A stretch of 64,000 nt of DNA from Candidatus Woesebacteria bacterium (GCA_003484955.1 DMZH01000003.1:47815-111814), one strand, 5' to 3'; numbered from the stretch's first letter, positions 410-64,000 are shown. The notes: a model not told the origin generated them from the letters alone. Made by a program: numbers and translations.

Positions 410-549
410 AGCCAAATACTTGCAGTTTTTCTTGAAAGCTGATATAATGCCCCTTTGTGAGTCAAGCCTCTCGCTCCTTGTCCCGATATTTTTCGGGACA
501 AAGACCGGGAGGTTTTTTATTACTCTCAAACTGATATATAATAACTATT

Positions 550-1455
550 ATGCAAAAGGGTCCTGTTACACCAAAAGGGTTTGGCGATATTATGCCCGCC
601 GAGGCCAAGAAAAGGCGTTTTATGATAAACGCTATTGCCCCTATTCTCGAAAAATACGGTTTTGAACCGCTTGAAACCCCAATCGTTGAGTTTGCAGATA
701 CGCTTCTGGGAAAATACGGCGAAGACGAAAAATTGATCTATAAATTTGAAGACAAAGGTGGAAGAGAACTTGCCTTAAGATACGACCTGACTGTTCCCCT
801 AGCCCGTTTTGTTGCCAATAATCTTGGTCTTCTCAAACCCACTTTTTCCCGGTACCAAGTAGGACAAGTTTTTAGAGGAGAAAATCCTCAAAAGGGCCGC
901 AAGCGAGAGTTTACCCAGTTCGACCTCGATTCTGTGGGGTCAAGTGACGTTTCTGAAGATGTAAGAGTAATTTCCGCAACAATCGAGGGGTCGCGTGCCA
1001 TCGGACTAACCGATGCCATTTTACAAATAAATGACCGTGAACTTTTTGACAAAATTGGCTTTTCCAAAGAAGGAATCAGGTCAATTGATAAGATCGATAA
1101 AATCGGGCGTGATCAGGTTGTCACACTTTTAAAAGAAATTAATTTAGACGAGGCCGAAAAGATGTTTGCCGATCTGGAAAAATCCGGCAAGACAGAAAGA
1201 CTAACCAAAATTTTTGAAGAACTTAAAATTAATGGATTCAAAGAAAATGTTGATTTTGTTTTTAACCCGTTTCTCGCCCGGGGCCTGGATTACTACACCT
1301 CAACAATTTTTGAGCTTAAGCTTGACAAAACACCAGGAGGACTTTCCGTTGGTGGCGGCGGAAGATATGACAACTTGATTGGAATGTTTGCCGGCCGCAC
1401 TATTCCTGCGGTTGGTTTTTCATTCGGAATTGATAGAATAATTGATCTTATATAA
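550..1455 (+). CDS. hisS: Histidyl-tRNA synthetase, catalytic core only (class II aaRS); no anticodon-binding domain
   Basis: HisRS motifs LRYDLTVPLARF and GGGRYDNLIGMF and AVGFSFGIDRI; the protein stops right after motif 3 at 301 aa. Confidence 0.75.
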   Translation: MQKGPVTPKGFGDIMPAEAKKRRFMINAIAPILEKYGFEPLETPIVEFADTLLGKYGEDEKLIYKFEDKGGRELALRYDLTVPLARFVANNLGLLKPTFSRYQVGQVFRGENPQKGRKREFTQFDLDSVGSSDVSEDVRVISATIEGSRAIGLTDAILQINDRELFDKIGFSKEGIRSIDKIDKIGRDQVVTLLKEINLDEAEKMFADLEKSGKTERLTKIFEELKINGFKENVDFVFNPFLARGLDYYTSTIFELKLDKTPGGLSVGGGGRYDNLIGMFAGRTIPAVGFSFGIDRIIDLI

Positions 1456-1460
1456 CTAGT

Positions 1461-2372
1461 ATGAGCCCTGCCCGAAAACGCGCCTATATAGAACTTCTTA
1501 TTGTGGCCGTGATTTGGGGAAGCGCCAGTCCTATCATTAAGTATACCCTGGGCGGTTTTTCCCCAGCCATATTTTTGGTCTACAGATTTTTTATTTCGGC
1601 AATCGTTGCCTTTGTCATTTTTGCATTTACCGGCATAAAATTTCCCAAAAAACCTAAGGTTCTTGCGGTAACCCTTTTAAACGGGTTTTTACTCTCAACT
1701 GTCGCGCTTGGACTTTTATTCCTGGGCACTGATAAGACCACCTCAATTGATTCTAATTTGATTTCCGCCATATCCCCCATTGTTATTGCCGTTGCCGGGG
1801 TTTTCTTCCTGAAAGAACATATCACCAAAAGAGAAAGTATCGGAATTCTGATTGCACTCACAGGAACTCTTATTACTATAGTCGAACCCATCCTTAAGTT
1901 TAATAACGGCTTCGGTGGGCTCGAAGGTAACCTCCTAGTTTTAGCCTCTGTGATAGTTGGTGCCATAACCGCAATACTTGCCAAAATACTTCTCAGGAAC
2001 AATGTTGATGCCATTTTTGCGACAAATATATCTTTTATTATCGGATTTGTGACAATGTTGCCGTTTACCCTTCCCCAGATTCTAAATTCCAGATTCCAAA
2101 TTCTTACTTCGGTTCCCTTTTCCTACCATCTCGGAGTTTTCTATATGGCACTTTTATCCGGAACTCTGGCTTATTTTCTCTGGCACAAAGCCGAAAAGAC
2201 AATTGAAGTCGGAGAGGTCAATCTTATCGCTTACCTCTACCCTCTTTTCGGTGCGCCGTTGTCAGTTTTCTGGCTGGGAGAAAAAATCGGCACGCCTTTT
2301 GTTATCGGGGGTATTTTAATAGCGGCTGGGGTTACCCTTGCCCAAATAAAGAAAAAAAGGTATAATTCCTAA
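1461..2372 (+). CDS. EamA/DMT-family transporter
   Basis: About 10 predicted TM helices in two EamA-like halves. Confidence 0.6.
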   Translation: MSPARKRAYIELLIVAVIWGSASPIIKYTLGGFSPAIFLVYRFFISAIVAFVIFAFTGIKFPKKPKVLAVTLLNGFLLSTVALGLLFLGTDKTTSIDSNLISAISPIVIAVAGVFFLKEHITKRESIGILIALTGTLITIVEPILKFNNGFGGLEGNLLVLASVIVGAITAILAKILLRNNVDAIFATNISFIIGFVTMLPFTLPQILNSRFQILTSVPFSYHLGVFYMALLSGTLAYFLWHKAEKTIEVGEVNLIAYLYPLFGAPLSVFWLGEKIGTPFVIGGILIAAGVTLAQIKKKRYNS

Positions 2373-2687: not shown

Positions 2688-3401
2688 TTGGGTAGTATGA
2701 ATAATAATCAACTCCAGGTAGTCTATTTAGAAATCAGGGGTGCCACCGGCGGTGATGAGGCTAAGCTTTGGGGTCAGGACCTACTTCGAATGTATATCCG
2801 CTTTGCCGGGAAAGTTGGCTGGAAAGTATACTCCGTATCCGACAATACTATAAAAATTTCAGGGTTTGGAGCTTTTGACAGTCTCAAAAACGAATCCGGT
2901 GTGCACCGTGTGCAAAGAGTACCTGTAACCGAAAAAAGAGGTAGAATCCACACATCCACTGCCACAGTGGTTGTACTTCCCGAAATTAAAGAAACCGAAA
3001 TTCAGATAAACCCCAATGACCTGGAATGGAGCTTTACCACAGGCGGAGGCCACGGAGGCCAAAACGTAAATAAAGTTTCGACAGCAGTGAGACTTGTCCA
3101 TAAACCTACCGGTACCGTCGCAGAAGCCCGCGAGGAGAGGTTCCAAGAGCAAAACCGCCAAATAGCGCTTTCTCTACTCAGATCCCGTCTTTGGGAGCGC
3201 CAGGAAGCCGAGAAAATGCGCACCGTTGCCGGCTATCGCTCAGTTATAGGCCGTGGAATGAGGTCAGAAAAAATACGCACTTACAATTTTCCCCAGGACA
3301 GACTCACTGACCACAGAATCGGTAAAAATTGGGGCAAACTTGAAGCTATTATGGACGGTGAATTGGAAAAAGTCGTAGAACTAACCCGAAATATTCAATA
3401 A
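2688..3401 (+). CDS. prfA: Class I peptide chain release factor, RF1-type, lacking the N-terminal domain 1
   Basis: PVT tripeptide (RVQRVPVTE) and GGQ (GGGHGGQNVNK). It aligns to E. coli RF1 from about residue 115 onward and is only 237 aa. Confidence 0.8.
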   Translation: MGSMNNNQLQVVYLEIRGATGGDEAKLWGQDLLRMYIRFAGKVGWKVYSVSDNTIKISGFGAFDSLKNESGVHRVQRVPVTEKRGRIHTSTATVVVLPEIKETEIQINPNDLEWSFTTGGGHGGQNVNKVSTAVRLVHKPTGTVAEAREERFQEQNRQIALSLLRSRLWERQEAEKMRTVAGYRSVIGRGMRSEKIRTYNFPQDRLTDHRIGKNWGKLEAIMDGELEKVVELTRNIQ

Positions 3402-7983: not shown

Positions 7984-8214
7984 ATGAAGCTATTTTAGCA
8001 CAGTTAATTTATCTTTTTTTTGTTTAACAATATCTAGCAATGATAACGTAGCGTTTTCTAAAATGTCATGGCGGGATGATATTTTTAAAACCATCATCCT
8101 ATAAGCGTCTGCTGCGCAAGCAATTAGATGAACCAATTTTCTGTCTGTGGGTATGTTAACTTTGCCCTGTAATTTGATAAAAACTAGCCTATATTATATA
8201 CTGCTCAACATACT

Positions 8215-9411
8215 ATGGGAAATGAGAGATATGTTCTACGTGATGAATCGTTCGGTGGCACACTCTACGATCGCAAACTGTTAAAGCATGACTTCTTATA
8301 CAAAGATCAAATAGACTCAACAGCCATCTCCATAAATGGACAGGAAATAAAATCTTTTGAACATTGGGAGGCTGAAGTGGAGAACTTAAGGACTGACATA
8401 TTATATTCCCCAATTCGTGTTTATATAGAAAGAACCCGTAAATGTAATTTAAGATGTGATACATGCTTTAATAGTTCTGGTGTGGAGCCAGAGGGTGAAT
8501 TAACAACAGACGAACTTAAAAAAAGTCTTGACGGCATGAGAAAAGATAACATATTAGACCTGCGTTTTTCAGGAGGTGAAATCACAACTAAACCCAATTG
8601 GCACGAAGAAGTGGGTTATGCAAAAGAGTTAGGATTTGCTGTATCAGTTAATACTAATGGTGTTTTCCAAAATCCTGACAAAACTGTAGAACAATTAGCC
8701 ACTCTGCATATTGATCAGATAACAATAAGTATTGACGGAAACCAAGAGCATCATGATAAAAACAGAGGACGGGGCACATACGAAAAGTCTCTAGAGGCGT
8801 TAAAAGAATTAAAACGTAGAGGCGCATCAACGAGAACAAACACCGTATTAACAACTCTTTCCATTAACGATCCTGAATCTATTATTCAAAGCGTTGCACC
8901 TTATGTTGATGAAATGGCATTTTTCCACATGAGACTTATCGGAAGAGCGCAAGGGATACAAAACAGAAGAGTTGATTTCTACAACTTAGTTGAATTTTAT
9001 AATCGTATGGAAATTTTGGAAAAAAGATACCCCAACATTCGGTTTTTTTATAAGGAAAGGGCTATACAAAATACATCAATAATGCCAAATGGATACGGAT
9101 TACGAGTTGGGTCTCCCGACGGATTAACCAGATTAAATTTGAATAATGGTGGATCTTTGTGGGCTGGCGGATATACTGCGTATATTGACCCAGATTTTAG
9201 ACTTGGAAATATAAAGGATGAAAATTACTCGCTTAGACAAATTTGGAACAACTCTCCTATTCTTGAGTCGTACAGAGATTTTGGACAAAAATTAGTTGAA
9301 AGATGTCTAAGTTGTGTCGAACTGGACACTCGTTGTCCCGGAGTAAATGTAGAAATGGAATTAATAAGAAAAAAATTTCCACTAATAGGAAATCCCAACT
9401 GTATTTATTAA
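8215..9411 (+). CDS. Radical SAM enzyme with an N-terminal ~70-aa extension (possibly a PqqD-like peptide-recognition element) and a Cys-containing C-terminal auxiliary (SPASM/twitch-like) region
   Basis: CNLRCDTC fits the CX3CX2C radical SAM cluster motif at about residue 76; C-terminal ERCLSCVELDTRC; the N-terminal YVLRDESFGGTLYD resembles a PqqD-family start. Confidence 0.7.
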   Translation: MGNERYVLRDESFGGTLYDRKLLKHDFLYKDQIDSTAISINGQEIKSFEHWEAEVENLRTDILYSPIRVYIERTRKCNLRCDTCFNSSGVEPEGELTTDELKKSLDGMRKDNILDLRFSGGEITTKPNWHEEVGYAKELGFAVSVNTNGVFQNPDKTVEQLATLHIDQITISIDGNQEHHDKNRGRGTYEKSLEALKELKRRGASTRTNTVLTTLSINDPESIIQSVAPYVDEMAFFHMRLIGRAQGIQNRRVDFYNLVEFYNRMEILEKRYPNIRFFYKERAIQNTSIMPNGYGLRVGSPDGLTRLNLNNGGSLWAGGYTAYIDPDFRLGNIKDENYSLRQIWNNSPILESYRDFGQKLVERCLSCVELDTRCPGVNVEMELIRKKFPLIGNPNCIY

Positions 9412-9412
9412 G

Positions 9413-10291
9413 ATGTCACTGACTAGAGCAGAATCCTCATATTATGTATATTTAACTGAACGCATGGATAAGGGCGAGAGTAAAAACATAGTTATTCCAA
9501 CAACTGTTGACCTTATCTCCAAACACTCACAACTCAAATCCGTAGTTAAAATATTAGATATTGGTTGTTTTAACGGAGCAATGCTTAATCAAATAAGACT
9601 CGGTACACCAGCTGAACTCAGGCAACGGGTTAGTTATACCGGAGCAGAAATTGACGGAAGTTTAATAGAAGATGGTAGAAAGAGATATCCAGAATTAAAT
9701 TTTCGTAAATTAAATTTGCAGGAACAATTACCAGACCTAGAACAATATGACATTGTTATATTATCAAATGTTTTACATGAAGTTATACCAAATAGCGAAA
9801 ATATAGATGTTGAGAAAGTAATTGGTGCATCATTAAAAAAGATTTCTTCACTTGTAACTGCAGATGGAGATTTGTTAATTTTAGACGGCTTAAGACCTGA
9901 CAACGATACTGATATTGTAGAGGTATGTTTTGCCACAAGTGAAGTTCATGAACTTTATAAGCAATTTGCCGAGAAATACACCGCTTTTAAAATATATGCA
10001 ACAGATCTTGGAGAAAATATAATTCAAACCAGAGTTAAGGATTTAGCAGCATTTCTTACTAAAGCAAGGTATTTGTTTGAAAGTTATTGGTCAATTGAAT
10101 CACAACAAATTTATCAATACTTCAACAAGCAGCAATTTACCAAAGCGCTACAATTATCAGGCTTCAGAATTGAAAGGCTTGAGCCGCAAAGATTTGATCA
10201 GGAGCATGTAGATAGAATGTTTTCCTCTATAACGCCTAAGATCGAATATCCTGCCAAAAATTTGTTAATTGTAGCGACTAAGAATAACTAA
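9413..10291 (+). CDS. Class I SAM-dependent methyltransferase
   Basis: Motif I ILDIGCFNG; post-I acidic residue; DIVILSNVLHEV. It is translationally coupled to the radical SAM gene by a 1-nt gap. Confidence 0.7.
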   Translation: MSLTRAESSYYVYLTERMDKGESKNIVIPTTVDLISKHSQLKSVVKILDIGCFNGAMLNQIRLGTPAELRQRVSYTGAEIDGSLIEDGRKRYPELNFRKLNLQEQLPDLEQYDIVILSNVLHEVIPNSENIDVEKVIGASLKKISSLVTADGDLLILDGLRPDNDTDIVEVCFATSEVHELYKQFAEKYTAFKIYATDLGENIIQTRVKDLAAFLTKARYLFESYWSIESQQIYQYFNKQQFTKALQLSGFRIERLEPQRFDQEHVDRMFSSITPKIEYPAKNLLIVATKNN

Positions 10292-11310
10292 CTTGCATTT
10301 AGAATGTCATGGATCGTCTTGGACACTTGGCCAAGATTTCCACCAGATACGCTCATTATTCCACTTTTTTTAACCATTTGGTTGATACAGTCTACTCGCC
10401 TATTGTGTTTATCTTCAGTATCCAACGAAGGCATGTAACCTAAAAACTTTGCTTCTTTACTAAATACACTTATAGCTGATCCTCTTACAATTCTAGACAT
10501 ATCTTCATACAATCGATACAAAAATGGAATTCCATCATCTTTTTCAACCAACAGAGGATCCTGTTCTTTACTGTCCAGGTGAATCTCAAAGATTGCATCT
10601 AATTTGTTAGGTTCTAGAGCTGAAACAAGACCTATTTGTTCGGGATTAACTGAAATTTTATCTTCCCAAGCCGATCCATTTGTCCCATGAAATAAGTCTG
10701 CTAAATCGGGAAAATTTCTTAAAACTGTTGACAGTCGTAATCTCAAATCCTTTGTACCATTAATTAAGTTTATGTCACCCGAGGCAGAATTATGCGATAC
10801 AACAGTTAAGTCGTTCGATACGACTTGCCCATTATATTTCCGACATAAATCAAGCATCACAGAAGTCTTTCCTGCACCACTATGCCCTAGTAACAACACT
10901 CCCTTACCATCAATGGTTAAGGCTGACGAGTGTAGCGTAAACAATGATTTCTCTTGTCTTTGAGCTTCCATTAACCAATAACTTGTCCACAAAACAGCCT
11001 GTCCATCTATGAAGTCGTCTTTACTTCCCATTAAGATGACTGAGGTTGTTTCTTCGTCAAACCTGAGTGATTTTGTATCACTTTCTATAAGAATTAATGA
11101 GGCCGAATTTTCCACTTTTGATTGGCCCACTATTAAACCAGGTACTATCCCTGAAAGATCTGCAATATTTGTTAATAAATCAACCTTTCGATCGTCAAAC
11201 TCTGTAAACAAATTGACACTCCCCTCTGGGGTTTGAAGATTGCCTTTAAAACCAGCTTGAGCAAATTTTTCTTTATCCTTGTTTCCGATTAAGCCTTCGC
11301 GTTCAGGCAT
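10288..11310 (-). CDS. HPr kinase/phosphorylase-like P-loop kinase (HprK-related family)
   Basis: LHSSALTIDGKGVLLLGHSGAGKTS matches the HprK C-terminal domain signature (LHG...GxGVLLxGxSGxGKS). Confidence 0.55.
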   Translation of the reverse strand: MPEREGLIGNKDKEKFAQAGFKGNLQTPEGSVNLFTEFDDRKVDLLTNIADLSGIVPGLIVGQSKVENSASLILIESDTKSLRFDEETTSVILMGSKDDFIDGQAVLWTSYWLMEAQRQEKSLFTLHSSALTIDGKGVLLLGHSGAGKTSVMLDLCRKYNGQVVSNDLTVVSHNSASGDINLINGTKDLRLRLSTVLRNFPDLADLFHGTNGSAWEDKISVNPEQIGLVSALEPNKLDAIFEIHLDSKEQDPLLVEKDDGIPFLYRLYEDMSRIVRGSAISVFSKEAKFLGYMPSLDTEDKHNRRVDCINQMVKKSGIMSVSGGNLGQVSKTIHDILNAS

Positions 11311-24952: not shown

Positions 24953-26182
24953 CTATTTTTTAAGTCGTTTAATGACCTCATCGAAATCCAAAAGTTCGGA
25001 TGCGTCTGTCGTTCTTTCCTTCCACTCGATTTTATCTCCATTACGTTCCGATACAACTAAGCGAACGGGAATTCCGATTAGGTCGGCATCCGCAAATTTT
25101 TCTCCCGGAGCAACATCCCGATCGTCCCACAAAACATCGATATTGTTTTCTTTCAATTTTTCGTATATCTCTTTTCCATTTCCTCCAGGAAGTTCCACTA
25201 AGTGAATGTCAAACGGAGCGATTTGCGGATACCAAATAATCCCTTTGTCATCGTGTGACACTTCCACCAAAGTTCCCATAACACGTGTGGGGCCAATTCC
25301 ATAACTGGCAAACCAAATCGGTTTTTTAAGTCCTTTTTCATCCGTGTAATAAACATGCATCCGTTCCGCATACCATGTGCCAAGAGGAAATATGTTTCCA
25401 ACCTCCACCGTTCCTTCAATTTTTTCAATTTTCCCCTCTTTACATTTTGGACATTTTTCTCCCTCGTTTCCTTCGAATATTTCCTTATTTACGGAATAAT
25501 CACACTTATTACAAGTAAATATTGTATCCTCGCCATTTGCGCCGATTACTTGAAATTCGTGGGTGTGTCTTTCGGTAAAAACCCCTCCTGATGCCTCAGC
25601 GACTTTAAAATCAAATCCTAGTCTTTTGAAAATTTTTACATAAGCTCCTTTTACCTTCTCGTAATAATTCATCATATCTTCTTCATTTGCATGTGCAGAA
25701 TAAAGGTCTTTCATCATAAATTCCTTCCCTCTTAATATTCCGCTTTTGGCTCTTGCCTCATTTCTAAATTTGGTTGAGAGCTGATATATGGCAACCGGTA
25801 AATCCTGATAACTTTTGATATTTTTGCGAAGTAAATCCATTACTATTTCTTCATGGGTGAAAGATAAAACATATTCCTTTTTCCTGGTATCGGATAATTT
25901 ATACATTATCTCGTCAGCTTTATCCCACCTCCCTGTTTCACTCCAAATTTCTTTCGGATGAAGAAGGGGCATTAGCATTTCCTGCCCACCAACCGCATTA
26001 ATTTCTTCTCTGATGATCTGGTTTATTTTTGTGACAACCCTAAGTCCAAGTGGAAGAAGAGTCCAACTTCCGGACATCAGCTGATCAATAAATCCTGCGC
26101 GAACAAGAAGTTTATGGTTTAAACTTTGTGCGTCTTTCGGAGCTTCTTTTCTTGTTTTTGGAAAGAGTTGTGATTGTTTCAT
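24953..26182 (-). CDS. proS: Prolyl-tRNA synthetase, compact form with no INS editing domain and a Cys4 insert
   Basis: HKLLVRAGFIDQL...LPLGLRV class II motifs; CNKCDYS...CPKCKEG insert; start taken at the MKQSQ Met. Confidence 0.8.
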   Translation of the reverse strand: MKQSQLFPKTRKEAPKDAQSLNHKLLVRAGFIDQLMSGSWTLLPLGLRVVTKINQIIREEINAVGGQEMLMPLLHPKEIWSETGRWDKADEIMYKLSDTRKKEYVLSFTHEEIVMDLLRKNIKSYQDLPVAIYQLSTKFRNEARAKSGILRGKEFMMKDLYSAHANEEDMMNYYEKVKGAYVKIFKRLGFDFKVAEASGGVFTERHTHEFQVIGANGEDTIFTCNKCDYSVNKEIFEGNEGEKCPKCKEGKIEKIEGTVEVGNIFPLGTWYAERMHVYYTDEKGLKKPIWFASYGIGPTRVMGTLVEVSHDDKGIIWYPQIAPFDIHLVELPGGNGKEIYEKLKENNIDVLWDDRDVAPGEKFADADLIGIPVRLVVSERNGDKIEWKERTTDASELLDFDEVIKRLKK

Positions 26183-26195
26183 CGAGCCTATTGTA

Positions 26196-27308
26196 TCATT
26201 TTCCCAACGAGTTAATGAATCCGTCAATTCCACCGTTTGTTACAAGTCTTCGCACATCCCCGACTGTAATTACCAGAAGAAGAGTTAAAAGCAGGAGAAA
26301 GCCTATGTTGTTAATTGTCGCTTCAACTTTTCTGGAAACTTTTTTTCTGGTAACCGTCTCAATTCCTATAAAGACGAGTCTTCCTCCATCAAGCGCCGGG
26401 AAAGGTATAACATTCAAAATTGCCAGGTTGACGGAAAGAATACCGACAAAATTGAGAAGAGTCAGAAAACCGCTCTTTGAAGCTTCTGTAGTCACCGCAT
26501 AAATCCCGATCGGTCCTGAAACCCCTTGAGGGGTCTTTCCTTCAAAAATCCCGGACAGTAGACCCCACAGCCCCGTCGCAATGGTTTTACCCCAAAAAAT
26601 ACCGTCTTTAAATCCGTAATAAATTCCATAAAAAGGTCTGAGCAGTACGGGCGGATAATAAATTTCCATTGTTGTAATCGTCACCCCAACCGATCCCTCG
26701 CCGGAGGGTGGATTCTCTCTGGGAATAAGGCTAACCGTCAGGGTTTTTGTCTGACCGTTTATATCCCTCTGAACCTCATAAGTTACCCTTTTACCCTTAT
26801 AAGTGGCTGTTTTTGCAACAAACTCGTCAGACAGAACAATTGTTTCACCACCAACTTTAGTGATAATATCGCCAACCACAATTCCGGCATTTGCCGCGGG
26901 AGACCCTGATGCCACGTCGATTACTTTCACTTTTCCTCCGTCTCGGGGTATTCCGGAGAATGAGTAAACAATTGCAAAAACTATAATTGCCAAAAGGAAG
27001 TTCATAACAACTCCGGCAATTACAACCATAGCTCTTACTTTTTTGCTTTTATGCAAAAATGAATGTTTAACATTCGTTCCCTCATCCTCCTCCTGTTCCC
27101 CATGAAGTCTTACAAAACCACCAAAAGGAAGGGCATTAATCGAGTAGACAGTTTCACCTATCTTCTTGCTGAAAAGTCTTGGAGGAAGTCCGAAGCCAAA
27201 TTCTTCAACTTTTATTCCGGACTTTCTAGCAACAATAAAGTGTCCGAATTCATGGGATATAATTAACACCGAAAGCACAAGTATAAAAACAAGAATAGAG
27301 ACCAACAT
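26196..27308 (-). CDS. rseP: RIP metalloprotease RseP (site-2 protease, peptidase M50 with PDZ domain)
   Basis: HEFGH zinc motif in TM1, PDZ domain, LDGG motif. Confidence 0.85.
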   Translation of the reverse strand: MLVSILVFILVLSVLIISHEFGHFIVARKSGIKVEEFGFGLPPRLFSKKIGETVYSINALPFGGFVRLHGEQEEDEGTNVKHSFLHKSKKVRAMVVIAGVVMNFLLAIIVFAIVYSFSGIPRDGGKVKVIDVASGSPAANAGIVVGDIITKVGGETIVLSDEFVAKTATYKGKRVTYEVQRDINGQTKTLTVSLIPRENPPSGEGSVGVTITTMEIYYPPVLLRPFYGIYYGFKDGIFWGKTIATGLWGLLSGIFEGKTPQGVSGPIGIYAVTTEASKSGFLTLLNFVGILSVNLAILNVIPFPALDGGRLVFIGIETVTRKKVSRKVEATINNIGFLLLLTLLLVITVGDVRRLVTNGGIDGFINSLGK

Positions 27309-60547: not shown

Positions 60548-61444
60548 TTAATTAGCCAAATAATCGACTATTTTAGATGCAACATTAATTCCTGTTGATT
60601 CCTCAAATCCTTCAAATTGACAGGCTCTATTTACTTCAAGCACAACCCACTTACCTTCTTCGTTTTTCATAAGATCTATACCACAATAATCCAATTTGAA
60701 AAGTTTTGAAGTTTCTAAAGCAATACTGTTCGCCTCTAAATCTTCTCCGATTTTATATGATTCGACCTTACCTCCTTGCGAATAATTACTCAAAAAGTTC
60801 CCGGGTAGGGCAATTCGTTTCATCGCCCCAACTATTTTTCCATTCAAAACAATAACACGCAAATCTTCAGCTTTGGGTAAAAGTCTTTGGAAAAGAAGGG
60901 TTTTAATTTTAAAGTTCGAATTAAATGTTTTAAAAAGTTTAAGAAGGTCGGAGTCTTCTGATATTTTGAAAACCCCAATTCCACTACTTCCGATAATGTC
61001 CTTAGCGATATACGGATACGCGTCTACACTCCATTTTTTGAGTTCTTCAATTGATGTAAAACTAAAACTCTCGACAACCGGAATGCCTGCCAGGGCTAAA
61101 TTAATATATTGAGTGGTTTTATCTAATGAAGGCCATTTACTAAATGATTTTTCATTTAATAATTTTGATCCTTTTAATTTAGACCACACAATAATCGCAG
61201 TCCGGATTGGATTATATACACTATCCTCCCCCAACCCCCGCAAAAAAATCCCATGAGGGACAGGCATTTCTTCACCTTTTAATTTGAGTTCGAATTCCCC
61301 TGTTGTATAAACAATGTTTATGTCGTTGTATTTAATCACCCGAAGATTGATGTTCTTATTTTTTGCTTCCTCGATCAACCTTTTTGGGGCATAAGCTTTC
61401 GGGCCGTGGGTAAATAGAATAATATCCAAATCAAATTTTTTCAT
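60548..61444 (-). CDS. RimK-like ATP-grasp ligase
   Basis: VVLEVNRACQFEGFEESTG C-terminal RimK-type motif; ATP-grasp fold length. Confidence 0.65.
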   Translation of the reverse strand: MKKFDLDIILFTHGPKAYAPKRLIEEAKNKNINLRVIKYNDINIVYTTGEFELKLKGEEMPVPHGIFLRGLGEDSVYNPIRTAIIVWSKLKGSKLLNEKSFSKWPSLDKTTQYINLALAGIPVVESFSFTSIEELKKWSVDAYPYIAKDIIGSSGIGVFKISEDSDLLKLFKTFNSNFKIKTLLFQRLLPKAEDLRVIVLNGKIVGAMKRIALPGNFLSNYSQGGKVESYKIGEDLEANSIALETSKLFKLDYCGIDLMKNEEGKWVVLEVNRACQFEGFEESTGINVASKIVDYLAN

Positions 61445-61458
61445 AACTCGCCATTATA

Positions 61459-62400
61459 TTATATTTTTGACGAAAAATTTTGGACAAGTGCATTCAAAAA
61501 ATTATCTCTATTTTTCATCTCCCACTTTGGAAAACCTATCTGATCATTTATCTCAAATATTTTGGGATTGCCATCTTTGTCTATACCAAAATCGAGACTG
61601 AATATCGGGTTGTCGTATTCTTTGTAAAAAATTTTGGAAATTATTTTAACTATTTTCTTAACAGATTCCGGAACCTTGGAATAATCAACCTCCGTTAAAC
61701 TACCTCCCTGAGCAGCATTGGCTAAAAGTGATCCTTCGGCGGGAACTCTTACGTGACACCAAACAGCCTTTCCATTAACTACAACTATTCTTAAATCATG
61801 TCTTCCCGAAGTTATATTAGGAACTCCATTTGAAGTATCAATAAATTCCTGAAGTATGTATTTTTTTCCTTCTTTTTCCGGACTAAAATTTTTCAAATCC
61901 TCTTTTAACCCTATAAAAATCCCCTTGCCACGAAGACCGTCATATGGTTTTAAAACGACATTGTCAGTTGTTATTTTGCTAACTAGTTTAGCAGCGTTTT
62001 TTAAATTTCCTACCCAATACGTTTTGGGCATATAACTCGATAACTTAAGATATGTTTCCCATTTATTACAGGTCAATTCCTTAAACTTTCTGATATTTAC
62101 AACTTTTAGGCTTTTCTCATTTTTGGGTGGGAATAACAAATTTCCTACCCAATCAAAAACTAAATCTAGTCTAACCGTTTCTTCTACTCTCACAAATTTT
62201 CCATTTTTAAATAACCATGCACCATCAAAACCGTTGCCTCCCTTGTACGTTTTTCTGGTAAGAATATATACTTTCCAACCCTCGGCCTGGCATAATTCTA
62301 ATAGCCGAAGATAAACCGGTAATTTCTTCCCGATGTGGCTTAGTGGAGCAACCCCTTCAAAACTTCTGGAAAAACACATTCCAAATCTAATCATTGACAT
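61459..62400 (-). CDS. YheC/YheD-like ATP-grasp ligase
   Basis: VVLKPYDGLRGKGIFI, DLRIVVVNGKAV, LANAAQGG, IFEINDQIGF. Confidence 0.65.
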   Translation of the reverse strand: MSMIRFGMCFSRSFEGVAPLSHIGKKLPVYLRLLELCQAEGWKVYILTRKTYKGGNGFDGAWLFKNGKFVRVEETVRLDLVFDWVGNLLFPPKNEKSLKVVNIRKFKELTCNKWETYLKLSSYMPKTYWVGNLKNAAKLVSKITTDNVVLKPYDGLRGKGIFIGLKEDLKNFSPEKEGKKYILQEFIDTSNGVPNITSGRHDLRIVVVNGKAVWCHVRVPAEGSLLANAAQGGSLTEVDYSKVPESVKKIVKIISKIFYKEYDNPIFSLDFGIDKDGNPKIFEINDQIGFPKWEMKNRDNFLNALVQNFSSKI

Positions 62401-63283
62401 TTTCCTTATTTAAAAATTTGGAAACCTCATCAATTTCCGGACTAACGGTTTTATCGTAATTAAATCCTGGCCCCCTATTAACTTCGAGAACAAAAACTTT
62501 TCCTGTTCCTTTTTCAATTGCGATATCAACTCCACCTATTTGAATATTTAAACTTTTTACCGCACTGACCGCGATTTTCTGGATTTCGCGACTTATAGAG
62601 CTAACATCCAGATATTCTTCATTCTGATTTAGATTGGAATAATTTAATTTTAGTGAACTGTAATCTCTTGGAACTTTTGTGTGAACAACTTTTACCGCGT
62701 CTCCCAAAACCAAGAACCTGTATTCACTTTCTAATGGGATATATTTTTGAAAAAGATATTTTGCGGTTCTTTGCTTTTCTCCAATTTTTTTGGGTAACTG
62801 GTCAAACTGTTTCTTATTAGAAATGGAGTAAATTCCGGTCATATGTTGACCAACCAACTCTTTGGCAATGATCGGAAAACCCATTTTGTTAATAATATAG
62901 TCTTCATATCTCTTTATACTTTCGCCCATACAAAAAATTGTTTGCGGCACAGGAATTCCAGCAATCGATAACTTTAAATATGATGTTAGTTTATCCCCCG
63001 AAGCTCCAATTTCACTAAAACTTCTATCAAAATAGGTAATTCCCAATTTATCAAGACATCGGGCAAGACTTCCTGCTAAGGAAAAATGAGAATGGTCTGC
63101 CCTACGGATGTAAACCAATTTATATTCGGTTACATCAATTCCTTTTACAAGAATTTTTATATTCTGCCCATCAACATTGAACATAAGATCTGTGAAACAT
63201 GCAACCTGCGCATTTGCTTCGTTACCAAGAAATTTGACCTTAGGACCAATTTTATCAACAAGAATTAATATTTTTTTCATCAT
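62387..63283 (-). CDS. RimK-like ATP-grasp ligase
   Basis: FPIIAKELVGQHMTGIY, RFLVLGDAV, VFVLEVNRGPGF. Confidence 0.65.
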   Translation of the reverse strand: MMKKILILVDKIGPKVKFLGNEANAQVACFTDLMFNVDGQNIKILVKGIDVTEYKLVYIRRADHSHFSLAGSLARCLDKLGITYFDRSFSEIGASGDKLTSYLKLSIAGIPVPQTIFCMGESIKRYEDYIINKMGFPIIAKELVGQHMTGIYSISNKKQFDQLPKKIGEKQRTAKYLFQKYIPLESEYRFLVLGDAVKVVHTKVPRDYSSLKLNYSNLNQNEEYLDVSSISREIQKIAVSAVKSLNIQIGGVDIAIEKGTGKVFVLEVNRGPGFNYDKTVSPEIDEVSKFLNKENVND

Positions 63284-63296
63284 TTTATGTAAACAC

Positions 63297-64000
63297 TTAG
63301 TTTGTCTGATCGTCTACCTTAACTAAAAAACCCTGAAGATCACGTCGTCCAATAATAAAGATCTTTTTCAAACCTTTTCTGTTTGATACGGAGGCTATTG
63401 TATTAATCCTTCTTCCCGCCAGGTAGAAACTAATATTAATAACCGCTCTTTCCTCAGATCCCAAAGCGCTTTTAAAAACTTTTGTCCAAAGAATATTATT
63501 TTTTTGCAGAAGACCATTATTCTCTGCAAAAGTTTTATCTATTGAGCTTCTCCATGCACCCGTATCGATCTTCGCAGTTACCTCTACTCTGCGTCTTTCT
63601 GGTGTCACAATTTTGACTGTTTCGTCATTTCTGATTGTCTTAATACCCTCTTGAGCGGCCTTTCTGTTCTCAAATCTTCCTGCAAAAAGCGCCTTAGCAA
63701 GCATTACTCCTCGTTCTGCATCGGTAACATCTAGGTCTTCGACCCTTTCCAGTCTCTTTTTAAGTCCCTCCCCATTAGCCAGCTGAATTTGAAGCCCGGG
63801 TTGAGCGTTAAGTTCCAAAACCATAGGGCCTTTTTCCGGATGAATTACAATATCAACCCCTAAATATCCCAAATGCGAAGCTTCCTGGGCTCTGACCGCA
63901 GTTTCCAAAACCGCATCCCAACCGGGTATTTTTATTCCCCGAAGTTTACGTTCTGTCCCCGGTTTGAATACAATTTCCTCTCCATGCCAAATAGCTTTTG
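63297..64000 (-). CDS. RimK-like ATP-grasp C-terminal domain fused to a retropepsin-like (DTGA) aspartic-protease-type domain; N-terminus lies beyond the window edge
   Basis: LGYLGVDIVIHPEKGPMVLELNAQPG (ATP-grasp C-terminus) then VEVTAKIDTGAWRSSID; the frame stays open to nt 64000 upstream of the TTG the ORF finder chose. Confidence 0.6.
   Translation of the reverse strand, partial: KAIWHGEEIVFKPGTERKLRGIKIPGWDAVLETAVRAQEASHLGYLGVDIVIHPEKGPMVLELNAQPGLQIQLANGEGLKKRLERVEDLDVTDAERGVMLAKALFAGRFENRKAAQEGIKTIRNDETVKIVTPERRRVEVTAKIDTGAWRSSIDKTFAENNGLLQKNNILWTKVFKSALGSEERAVINISFYLAGRRINTIASVSNRKGLKKIFIIGRRDLQGFLVKVDDQTN

Follow-up and report, generated by a model that had tools for sequence, protein, structure and literature searches.

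The window analysed here, a stretch of 64,000 nucleotides from a Candidatus Woesebacteria bacterium (GCA_003484955.1 DMZH01000003.1:47815-111814), carries near its left end a short form of hisS, the gene for histidyl-tRNA synthetase (HisRS). The open reading frame (ORF) at 550..1455 (+) begins with ATG, ends with a TAA stop codon at 1453-1455, and encodes a protein of 301 residues comprising the catalytic core and insertion domain of HisRS, with no anticodon-binding domain (ABD); this assignment draws on the ORF list, the TIGR00442 and PF13393 profiles, matches to HisRS chains in the PDB, and an AlphaFold model compared by Foldseek. We know of no reassignment of the TAA codon. The GGGRYD and AVGFSFGIDR motifs lie at residues 269-274 and 287-296, and the C-terminus, ...IIDLI, is reached 5 residues past Arg296 of motif 3. 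The conserved downstream neighbour, an EamA-family transporter gene at 1461..2372 (+) (PF00892; TIGR00950-like in NCBIfam), starts 6 nt past the hisS stop codon and occupies the space taken by the ABD codons in relatives, such that no reading frame remains for a C-terminal domain.

Pfam assigns the 301-residue protein to the HisRS core PF13393 alone (E = 9e-44), with no match to HGTP_anticodon (PF03129), which is joined to the core by a linker of 9-14 residues in HisRS, and a tblastn search across the 64-kb window with an ABD query returned nothing (best E = 0.26). The NCBIfam hisS equivalog TIGR00442 aligns over profile positions 2-312 of 406 (E = 5e-87), and PDB HisRS chains of 420-465 residues align to the protein only through about residue 315-350. 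The ~100 C-terminal residues forming the HGTP_anticodon domain are truly absent, and two observations made in an earlier note on this DNA, that the protein stops just after class II motif 3 and that the anticodon-binding domain of about 100 residues is missing, are confirmed. The AlphaFold model of the ABD-less protein has a pLDDT of 74.6 and a pTM of 0.79. The prolyl-tRNA synthetase encoded in the same window (24953..26233, -) is of the compact bacterial type, with 426 residues and no INS editing domain, and its HGTP_anticodon domain is intact; loss of the ABD is therefore specific to HisRS, rather than general to the class IIa enzymes of this genome.

Distribution and origin of the short form

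The identical 301-residue protein is found on at least 39 contigs from independent assemblies, one of them the 750,195-bp contig containing the window (ENA ERZ936476 k127_325966), with public accessions from Candidatus Woesebacteria bacterium GW2011_GWA1_40_43 and the ACD_13 bin. The short gene is likewise present in the 1,078,985-bp genome encoding QQG41450.1, in GCA_000996165.1, and on the 640-kb contig JAKAJD010000001.1. This recurrence excludes an assembly or sequencing artefact. When clusters are formed at 90% identity, the 120 best matches (74-100% identical to the query) include 119 short ones, all of which end 5-10 residues after the GIDR of motif 3, and short forms taken from genome loci end 8-13 residues on when counted from the G of that motif. 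At the level of 50%-identity clusters (1.84 billion representatives), essentially the query's own cluster alone is short, and nearly all of the closest relatives, at ≤52% identity, are 390-440 residues in length. Truncated aminoacyl-tRNA synthetase calls are common in fragmented metagenome assemblies, and several such fragments were seen among the relatives, which could suggest a pseudogene or an artefact of assembly or gene calling from a normal hisS. The probability of this is negligible, with recurrence and conservation having already refuted it: the same protein recurs across independent assemblies, more than 118 diverged clusters have the same end point and invariant catalytic motifs, and the next gene abuts the stop codon.

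A protein of 394 residues with an ABD, 79% identical to the query (P0049), was considered as a close full-length relative and set aside as a chimera of assembly or, at most, a recombinant of very recent date. Over residues 1-290 its sequence is 100% that of a short form (P0037), from which it then diverges abruptly, and contig L001 (Ga0103680_10000688) agrees with the short-form contig L011 at every position of a 5,152-nt stretch that reaches codons within motif 3. Past the junction at position 10858, 1.3 kb before the contig end, L001 carries an ABD and EamA of the type seen in the sister-clade locus L002 (58% vs 31% identity). The L001 record is thus a trap for inferring domain architecture.

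A scan of GTDB, with one genome per species and 80 loci kept, places the short forms, among the matches listed, in Woese-, Gottesman-, Curtiss-, and Daviesbacteria and other Patescibacteria (51-73% identity), and the full-length forms in Saccharimonadales, Woykebacteria, WWE3, and other Woese- and Daviesbacteria. The names Woese-, Gottesman-, Curtiss-, and Daviesbacteria all fall within the NCBI Microgenomates group, bacteria of groundwater with tiny genomes. In a neighbour-joining tree of the catalytic core, the short forms are monophyletic in 200/200 bootstraps, and their clade is nested within the HisRS from the Candidate Phyla Radiation (CPR). The gene order DnaB-LactB-hisS-EamA-L31-RF1-HtrA-CtpB-S18-SSB-S6-YchF is common to short and full-length loci, including those of Saccharimonadales and WWE3, and by position the short gene is therefore orthologous to the housekeeping hisS. 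On these sequence comparisons, the ABD appears to have been deleted in place, by a single event in the ancestor from which a large Microgenomates subclade descends, with the ~300 nt encoding the linker and ABD presumably lost between motif 3 and the EamA start in that common ancestor, and the short form appears to be under purifying selection in this housekeeping locus.

Catalytic residues and the distinction from HisZ

Residue conservation was assessed in a 23-sequence alignment of diverse short forms, and subsequently between 118 short forms and 125 full-length relatives. Class II motif 1, the dimer-interface element, extends from G37 to F48 (GFEPLETPIVEF; 658..693, +), and the 23-sequence alignment shows G37, F38, E42, T43, P44, E47, and F48 without variation. 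Motif 2 and its loop, which bind ATP and the acceptor end, extend from F99 to D125 (FSRYQVGQVFRGENPQKGRKREFTQFD; 844..924, +), with R109, Q114, R117, R119, E120, and F121 invariant. Residues R109, Q114, R117, and R119 correspond to R112, Q117, R120, and R122 of Thermus thermophilus HisRS, which touch G-1 and C70-A76 of tRNA-His (PMC4357726), and the other equivalents of acceptor contacts, namely K9 (Arg7 in T. thermophilus) and, in the motif-2 loop, E111 and K115 alongside Q114, R117, and R119, are likewise conserved in the short forms. The HisRS-specific catalytic Arg244 belongs to the HisA motif LARGLDYYT (residues 242-250; 1273..1299, +), of which L242, A243, R244, G245, L246, Y248, Y249, and T250 are invariant, with R244 kept in 118/118 short forms. 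In the histidine-binding loop formed by the HisB motif GGGRYD (1354..1371, +), residues G270, G271, R272, Y273, and D274 are invariant, and in class II motif 3, which together with the tail IIDLI ends the protein (1408..1452, +), G289, G293, and R296 are invariant or nearly so across the short forms (R296 in 118/118).

The residues D68-K69-G70-G71-R72 (751..765, +) are equivalent to the 70-DRGGR-74 of T. thermophilus HisRS, which forms the trans-subunit pocket for G-1 (PMC4357726). G70 and R72 are each present in 118/118 short forms, and G71 in 117/118, a stricter conservation than in the full-length relatives, of which 67/125 have this glycine. In Caulobacter HisRS the Gly-Gly pair is replaced by Asp-Asp, and the tRNA-His of this organism is without G-1 (PMC4357726). 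The helical insertion domain, described as a clamp on the acceptor stem (PMC4357726), spans about residues 166-235 (1045..1254, +; model helices 163-227) and is shorter than that of relatives, with a mean of 68 residues in the short forms vs 92 in the 125 full-length sequences. A comparison of the same 118 and 125 sequences for features compensating for ABD loss revealed no gain of charge in the short clade, in addition to this shorter insertion. Overall, the catalytic arginines, HisA and HisB motifs, motif-2 contacts, and Gly-Gly pocket are conserved at least as well as in the 125 full-length HisRS. G70, G71, Q114, K115, R119, and K9 are of use only for binding G-1 and the acceptor end, and their fixation would not be expected in a protein with a function independent of tRNA.

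HisZ proteins, which are HisRS paralogs, characteristically lose the residues required for aminoacylation. The 301-residue protein passes TIGR00442 (292.4 bits vs a trusted cutoff of 286.75) despite its missing C-terminus, whereas the best HisZ model, TIGR00443, yields 153.9 bits vs a cutoff of 271.65, and every one of 20 HisZ models (TIGR00443 and the NF0089xx series) falls below its cutoff. Foldseek comparison of the AlphaFold model gives the HisRS structures 6nhi, 4phc, and 4g84 as the best matches (TMq about 0.7), with HisZ structures ranking lower, and neither hisG nor any other histidine-biosynthesis gene is present within the 64 kb of the window or in the adjoining 10 kb on its left side. 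That the protein is instead HisZ, the regulatory subunit of the short-form ATP phosphoribosyltransferase, might be proposed from its similar architecture, a HisRS-like core without a functional ABD, and from one public record (P0089) bearing that name. This is very improbable and already largely refuted by the profile scores and fold search, by the intact aminoacylation residues of the short forms, by the lack of his genes over the range given above, and by the orthology of the gene, in both synteny and phylogeny, to bona fide full-length HisRS. At the level of sequence, the protein would thus qualify as HisRS in every respect bar the C-terminal domain, and as HisZ neither by profile nor by residues. 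The earlier note had preferred HisRS to HisZ and named hisG and a phylogeny as checks; this preference is supported by the profile scores, invariant catalytic residues, and hisS synteny, by the lack of hisG in the window and the 10 kb past its left end, and by the nesting of the short forms as one clade in CPR HisRS.

Public names for the short family are inconsistent, and include 'histidine--tRNA ligase', 'hypothetical protein', and 'ATP phosphoribosyltransferase regulatory subunit' (P0089 = HKB88599.1; P0001 = EKE13046.1). On this evidence, the last of these names is a misannotation when applied to a short form, and could give false hints of histidine biosynthesis in metabolic reconstructions of CPR bacteria.

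Recognition of tRNA-His

No tRNA-His gene lies within the 64-kb window. At another short-form locus (L024), the protein of which is 56% identical to the query and ends 8 residues from the G of its motif-3 GLDR, a tRNA-His(GUG) gene is located 1.7 kb upstream of the short hisS, with G-1 encoded in the genome and facing C73, a G1-C72 pair, and an encoded CCA. The canonical set of bacterial histidine identity elements is therefore retained in at least one lineage that has the short enzyme, and the tRNA-His with G-1 that the earlier note had suggested looking for is present, in this relative, beside the short hisS. The same tRNA-His (8183..8257, +) has the T-loop G53-U54-C55-C56-G57-A58, with C at the normally universal U55, and is otherwise canonical. 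A metagenome scan for tRNA-His, the pattern of which was too general, returned 120 mixed loci, none with hisS nearby.

We consider, with a probability of roughly three in four, that the 301-residue protein is the housekeeping HisRS of a large Microgenomates clade, functional and blind to the anticodon. What remains of the enzyme, a class II catalytic core with a shortened helical insertion domain, would dimerise through the conserved motif 1, activate histidine, and select tRNA-His by its acceptor end alone. The G-1 base would sit in the Gly70-Gly71 pocket of the partner subunit, with the 5' phosphate and C73-A76 gripped by residues Q114, K115, R117, and R119 of the motif-2 loop, and the insertion domain would clamp the acceptor stem, whilst the GUG anticodon would no longer be read. 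HisRS is able to charge mini- and microhelices bearing G-1:C73, the anticodon determines identity only weakly in E. coli and T. thermophilus (PMC9976931; PMC4357726), and the HisRS of Aeropyrum pernix does not use the anticodon at all (PMC9976931; PMC4357726); recognition by the acceptor end only is therefore plausible. The minimal HisRS relying on G-1:C73 that the earlier note put forward as a possibility is supported by the invariant catalytic and acceptor-contact residues and G-1 pocket, from which the mechanism given here is proposed, and by the canonical tRNA-His of L024. We infer that the short HisRS is the only HisRS of the cell, dimeric, and sufficiently active for growth.

Several points weigh against this interpretation. 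Other aminoacyl-tRNA synthetase paralogs without an ABD, such as EpmA/PoxA, GluQ-RS, and HisZ, serve non-canonical functions. Confidence in the structure model is only moderate (pLDDT 74.6), a single tRNA-His was recovered from the short-form genomes, that of L024, and no compensating feature is obvious, with net charge similar and the insertion domain averaging 68 vs 92 residues. The sequence scanned, the 64-kb window and about 10 kb next to it, belongs to a genome of at least 750 kb, leaving room for a second hisS or a tRNA-binding partner acting in trans. The weightiest point is that the isolated catalytic domain of E. coli HisRS has ~0.6% of the aminoacylation efficiency of the full-length enzyme, as summarised in PMC4357726 from Augustine & Francklyn 1997, and only background activity according to PMC7308279. 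Organisms that grow slowly and have very small genomes might tolerate low activity; otherwise, subtle changes in the core would make up for the shortfall, or a partner would exist.

The low activity of the isolated E. coli domain, together with the generally non-canonical roles of ABD-less paralogs, may alternatively suggest that the short protein is a neofunctionalised derivative, with tRNA charged by a second, full-length HisRS encoded elsewhere in the genome. Such a derivative would act as a histidine sensor or regulator, as a producer of aminoacyl-adenylate or diadenosine tetraphosphate (Ap4A), or as a modifier of RNA or protein in the manner of EpmA and GluQ-RS. The sequence scanned, the window and about 10 kb, leaves the rest of the genome in which such a gene could lie, and Daviesbacteria-labelled genomes appear in both the short and full-length groups. 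Against this, the short gene lies exactly where other CPR lineages have their housekeeping hisS, the 80 loci listed include no two hisS loci from one genome, and no second hisS copy was seen in the 64-kb window and about 10 kb. Additionally, CPR genomes of about 0.75-1 Mb rarely keep duplicate aminoacyl-tRNA synthetase genes, and G70, G71, Q114, K115, R119, and K9, relevant only to binding of the acceptor end and G-1, are invariant. We therefore regard neofunctionalisation as unlikely.

A two-piece enzyme, in which a separate ABD or an unrelated tRNA-binding protein binds the tRNA body or anticodon in trans, would explain how the low intrinsic activity of the bare core is overcome, and small PF03129-only proteins do exist in the database. 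Searches with one ABD query and with a profile of 15 sister-clade ABDs, the matches of which were apparently limited to proteins of roughly query size, returned PF03129-only proteins alone, of 78-188 residues. Four of these were examined as stand-alone ABDs and rejected as fragments of full-length hisS: the gene is interrupted by an in-frame stop in L002, by a frameshift in L003, a contig of low coverage, and by a run of Ns in L217, and L216 is a long-read contig full of errors. None of the PF03129-only proteins sits on a contig equal in length to the long contigs with the short hisS. We accordingly found no evidence for a separately encoded ABD, with every PF03129-only protein examined being a piece of full-length hisS, and no ABD lies in the 64-kb window. 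The conserved hypothetical gene upstream of hisS was also considered as a helper in trans and rejected, as its product, with a transmembrane helix and immunoglobulin-like repeats, is a membrane-anchored envelope protein that is also encoded near full-length hisS. A two-piece enzyme is hence distinctly improbable. With regard to L002 itself (9140..10348; GCA_964565795.1), the locus holds a sister-clade full-length hisS with a single in-frame stop (…KLGKIG*EGV…), hence two ORF calls, and this stop could be a sequencing error or mark a recent pseudogene.

The anticodon-blind HisRS proposed here may be compared with several known systems. Canonical class IIa HisRS of the eukaryote/archaeal-like subtype (6NHI from Elizabethkingia, 4G84 and 4PHC from human, and 1WU7 from Thermoplasma; ~33-35% identity, TMq about 0.7) has the same catalytic fold, motifs 1-3, HisA and HisB motifs, motif-2 loop, Gly-Gly pocket for G-1, and helical insertion domain. 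In contrast to the short form, it also has the interdomain linker and HGTP_anticodon domain of ~100 residues, and an insertion of about 92 rather than 68 residues. HisZ (PDB 1Z7M, 3OD1) is similarly derived from HisRS, of similar size, and without a working anticodon-binding function, but has lost the aminoacylation residues and partners short HisG, whereas all of those residues are invariant in the short form. EpmA/PoxA, from lysyl-tRNA synthetase, and GluQ-RS/YadB, from glutamyl-tRNA synthetase, have likewise kept the catalytic core and lost the anticodon-binding domain, although these are extra paralogs alongside a full-length synthetase, whilst the short hisS occupies the ancestral locus. 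Identity set by the acceptor end only is known from alanyl- and seryl-tRNA synthetase, A. pernix HisRS, and the charging of G-1:C73 micro- and minihelices (PMC9976931); however, A. pernix HisRS and the HisRS that charge microhelices still carry the ABD, which the short form is without. In the engineered Ncat HisRS of E. coli (residues about 1-320/326), the core is cut a few residues past motif 3, as in the short form, and, as presented in PMC4357726, this core alone holds what is needed for adenylate synthesis and charging of tRNA-His. Ncat HisRS is artificial, ~0.6% efficient (PMC4357726), and at background in cells (PMC7308279), whereas the short form is natural, clade-wide, and located in a housekeeping locus. 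The closest functional analogue of the short form is nevertheless this artificial fragment, and the natural proteins nearest to it in architecture are the paralogs HisZ, EpmA, and GluQ-RS.

To our knowledge, the ABD counts as a constant component of HisRS; apart from the engineered E. coli fragment and the non-catalytic paralog HisZ, we know of no form without it. In the literature searched, which did not extend to subscription journals, we found no account of a CPR HisRS lacking the ABD. The evidence inclines towards a whole class-level branch of the CPR setting histidine identity solely by the acceptor end, with a natural, anticodon-blind core of ~300 residues, evolved to work without the ABD that all other known HisRS have kept, as its only HisRS. 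Specialists would likely find this notable rather than astonishing, since G-1:C73 is well known to dominate histidine identity. If true, these bacteria would offer a system for studying how far tRNA selection can rest on the "operational RNA code" of the acceptor stem, how a bare class II core becomes efficient, and where the limits lie in trimming the translation machinery of ultra-small genomes, and a compact, anticodon-blind HisRS could serve genetic-code engineering.

Upstream region and other genes of the window

A nested hairpin (461-513) followed by a run of six T residues lies upstream of hisS (461..519, +) and matches a terminator-like pattern. It is preceded by a sigma-70-like promoter, TTGCAG-17-TATAAT, at 419-448 (+), and followed by a second -10-like element, TGATATATAAT, which ends about 9 nt before the hisS ATG (region 419..548); the hisS mRNA may be nearly leaderless. 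The inner stem of the hairpin shows compensatory changes in the loci L011 and L013. No Rfam family matches the hairpin, and it is kept only among close relatives, being absent from the more distant short-form loci. A regulatory or tRNA-mimic element was considered and rejected on account of this narrow distribution, the lack of an Rfam match, and the terminator-like form; the hairpin is an attenuator or else terminates the gene upstream, with no tie to loss of the ABD.

Downstream of hisS, the gene for peptide chain release factor 1 (RF1; 2688..3401, +) encodes only 237 residues, which match the prfA profile over positions of about 100-336 of 347 and score 298.9 bits where the cutoff is 400. 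Domain 1 at the N-terminus (about 100 residues) is missing, with the PVT and GGQ motifs present, and there is no room for domain 1 because rpmE ends at 2681. RF1 is 232-234 residues long in close relatives, 294 in L002, and 342 in L217. RF1 is thus a second domain-trimmed translation protein in the same locus as the short hisS, which hints that these bacteria have systematically trimmed their translation apparatus at the level of domains. Four adjacent genes of the ATP-grasp type (RimK/glutathione-synthetase-like; about 298-430 residues) occupy 60548..63908 (-), at the window's right end, and are also found at L010.

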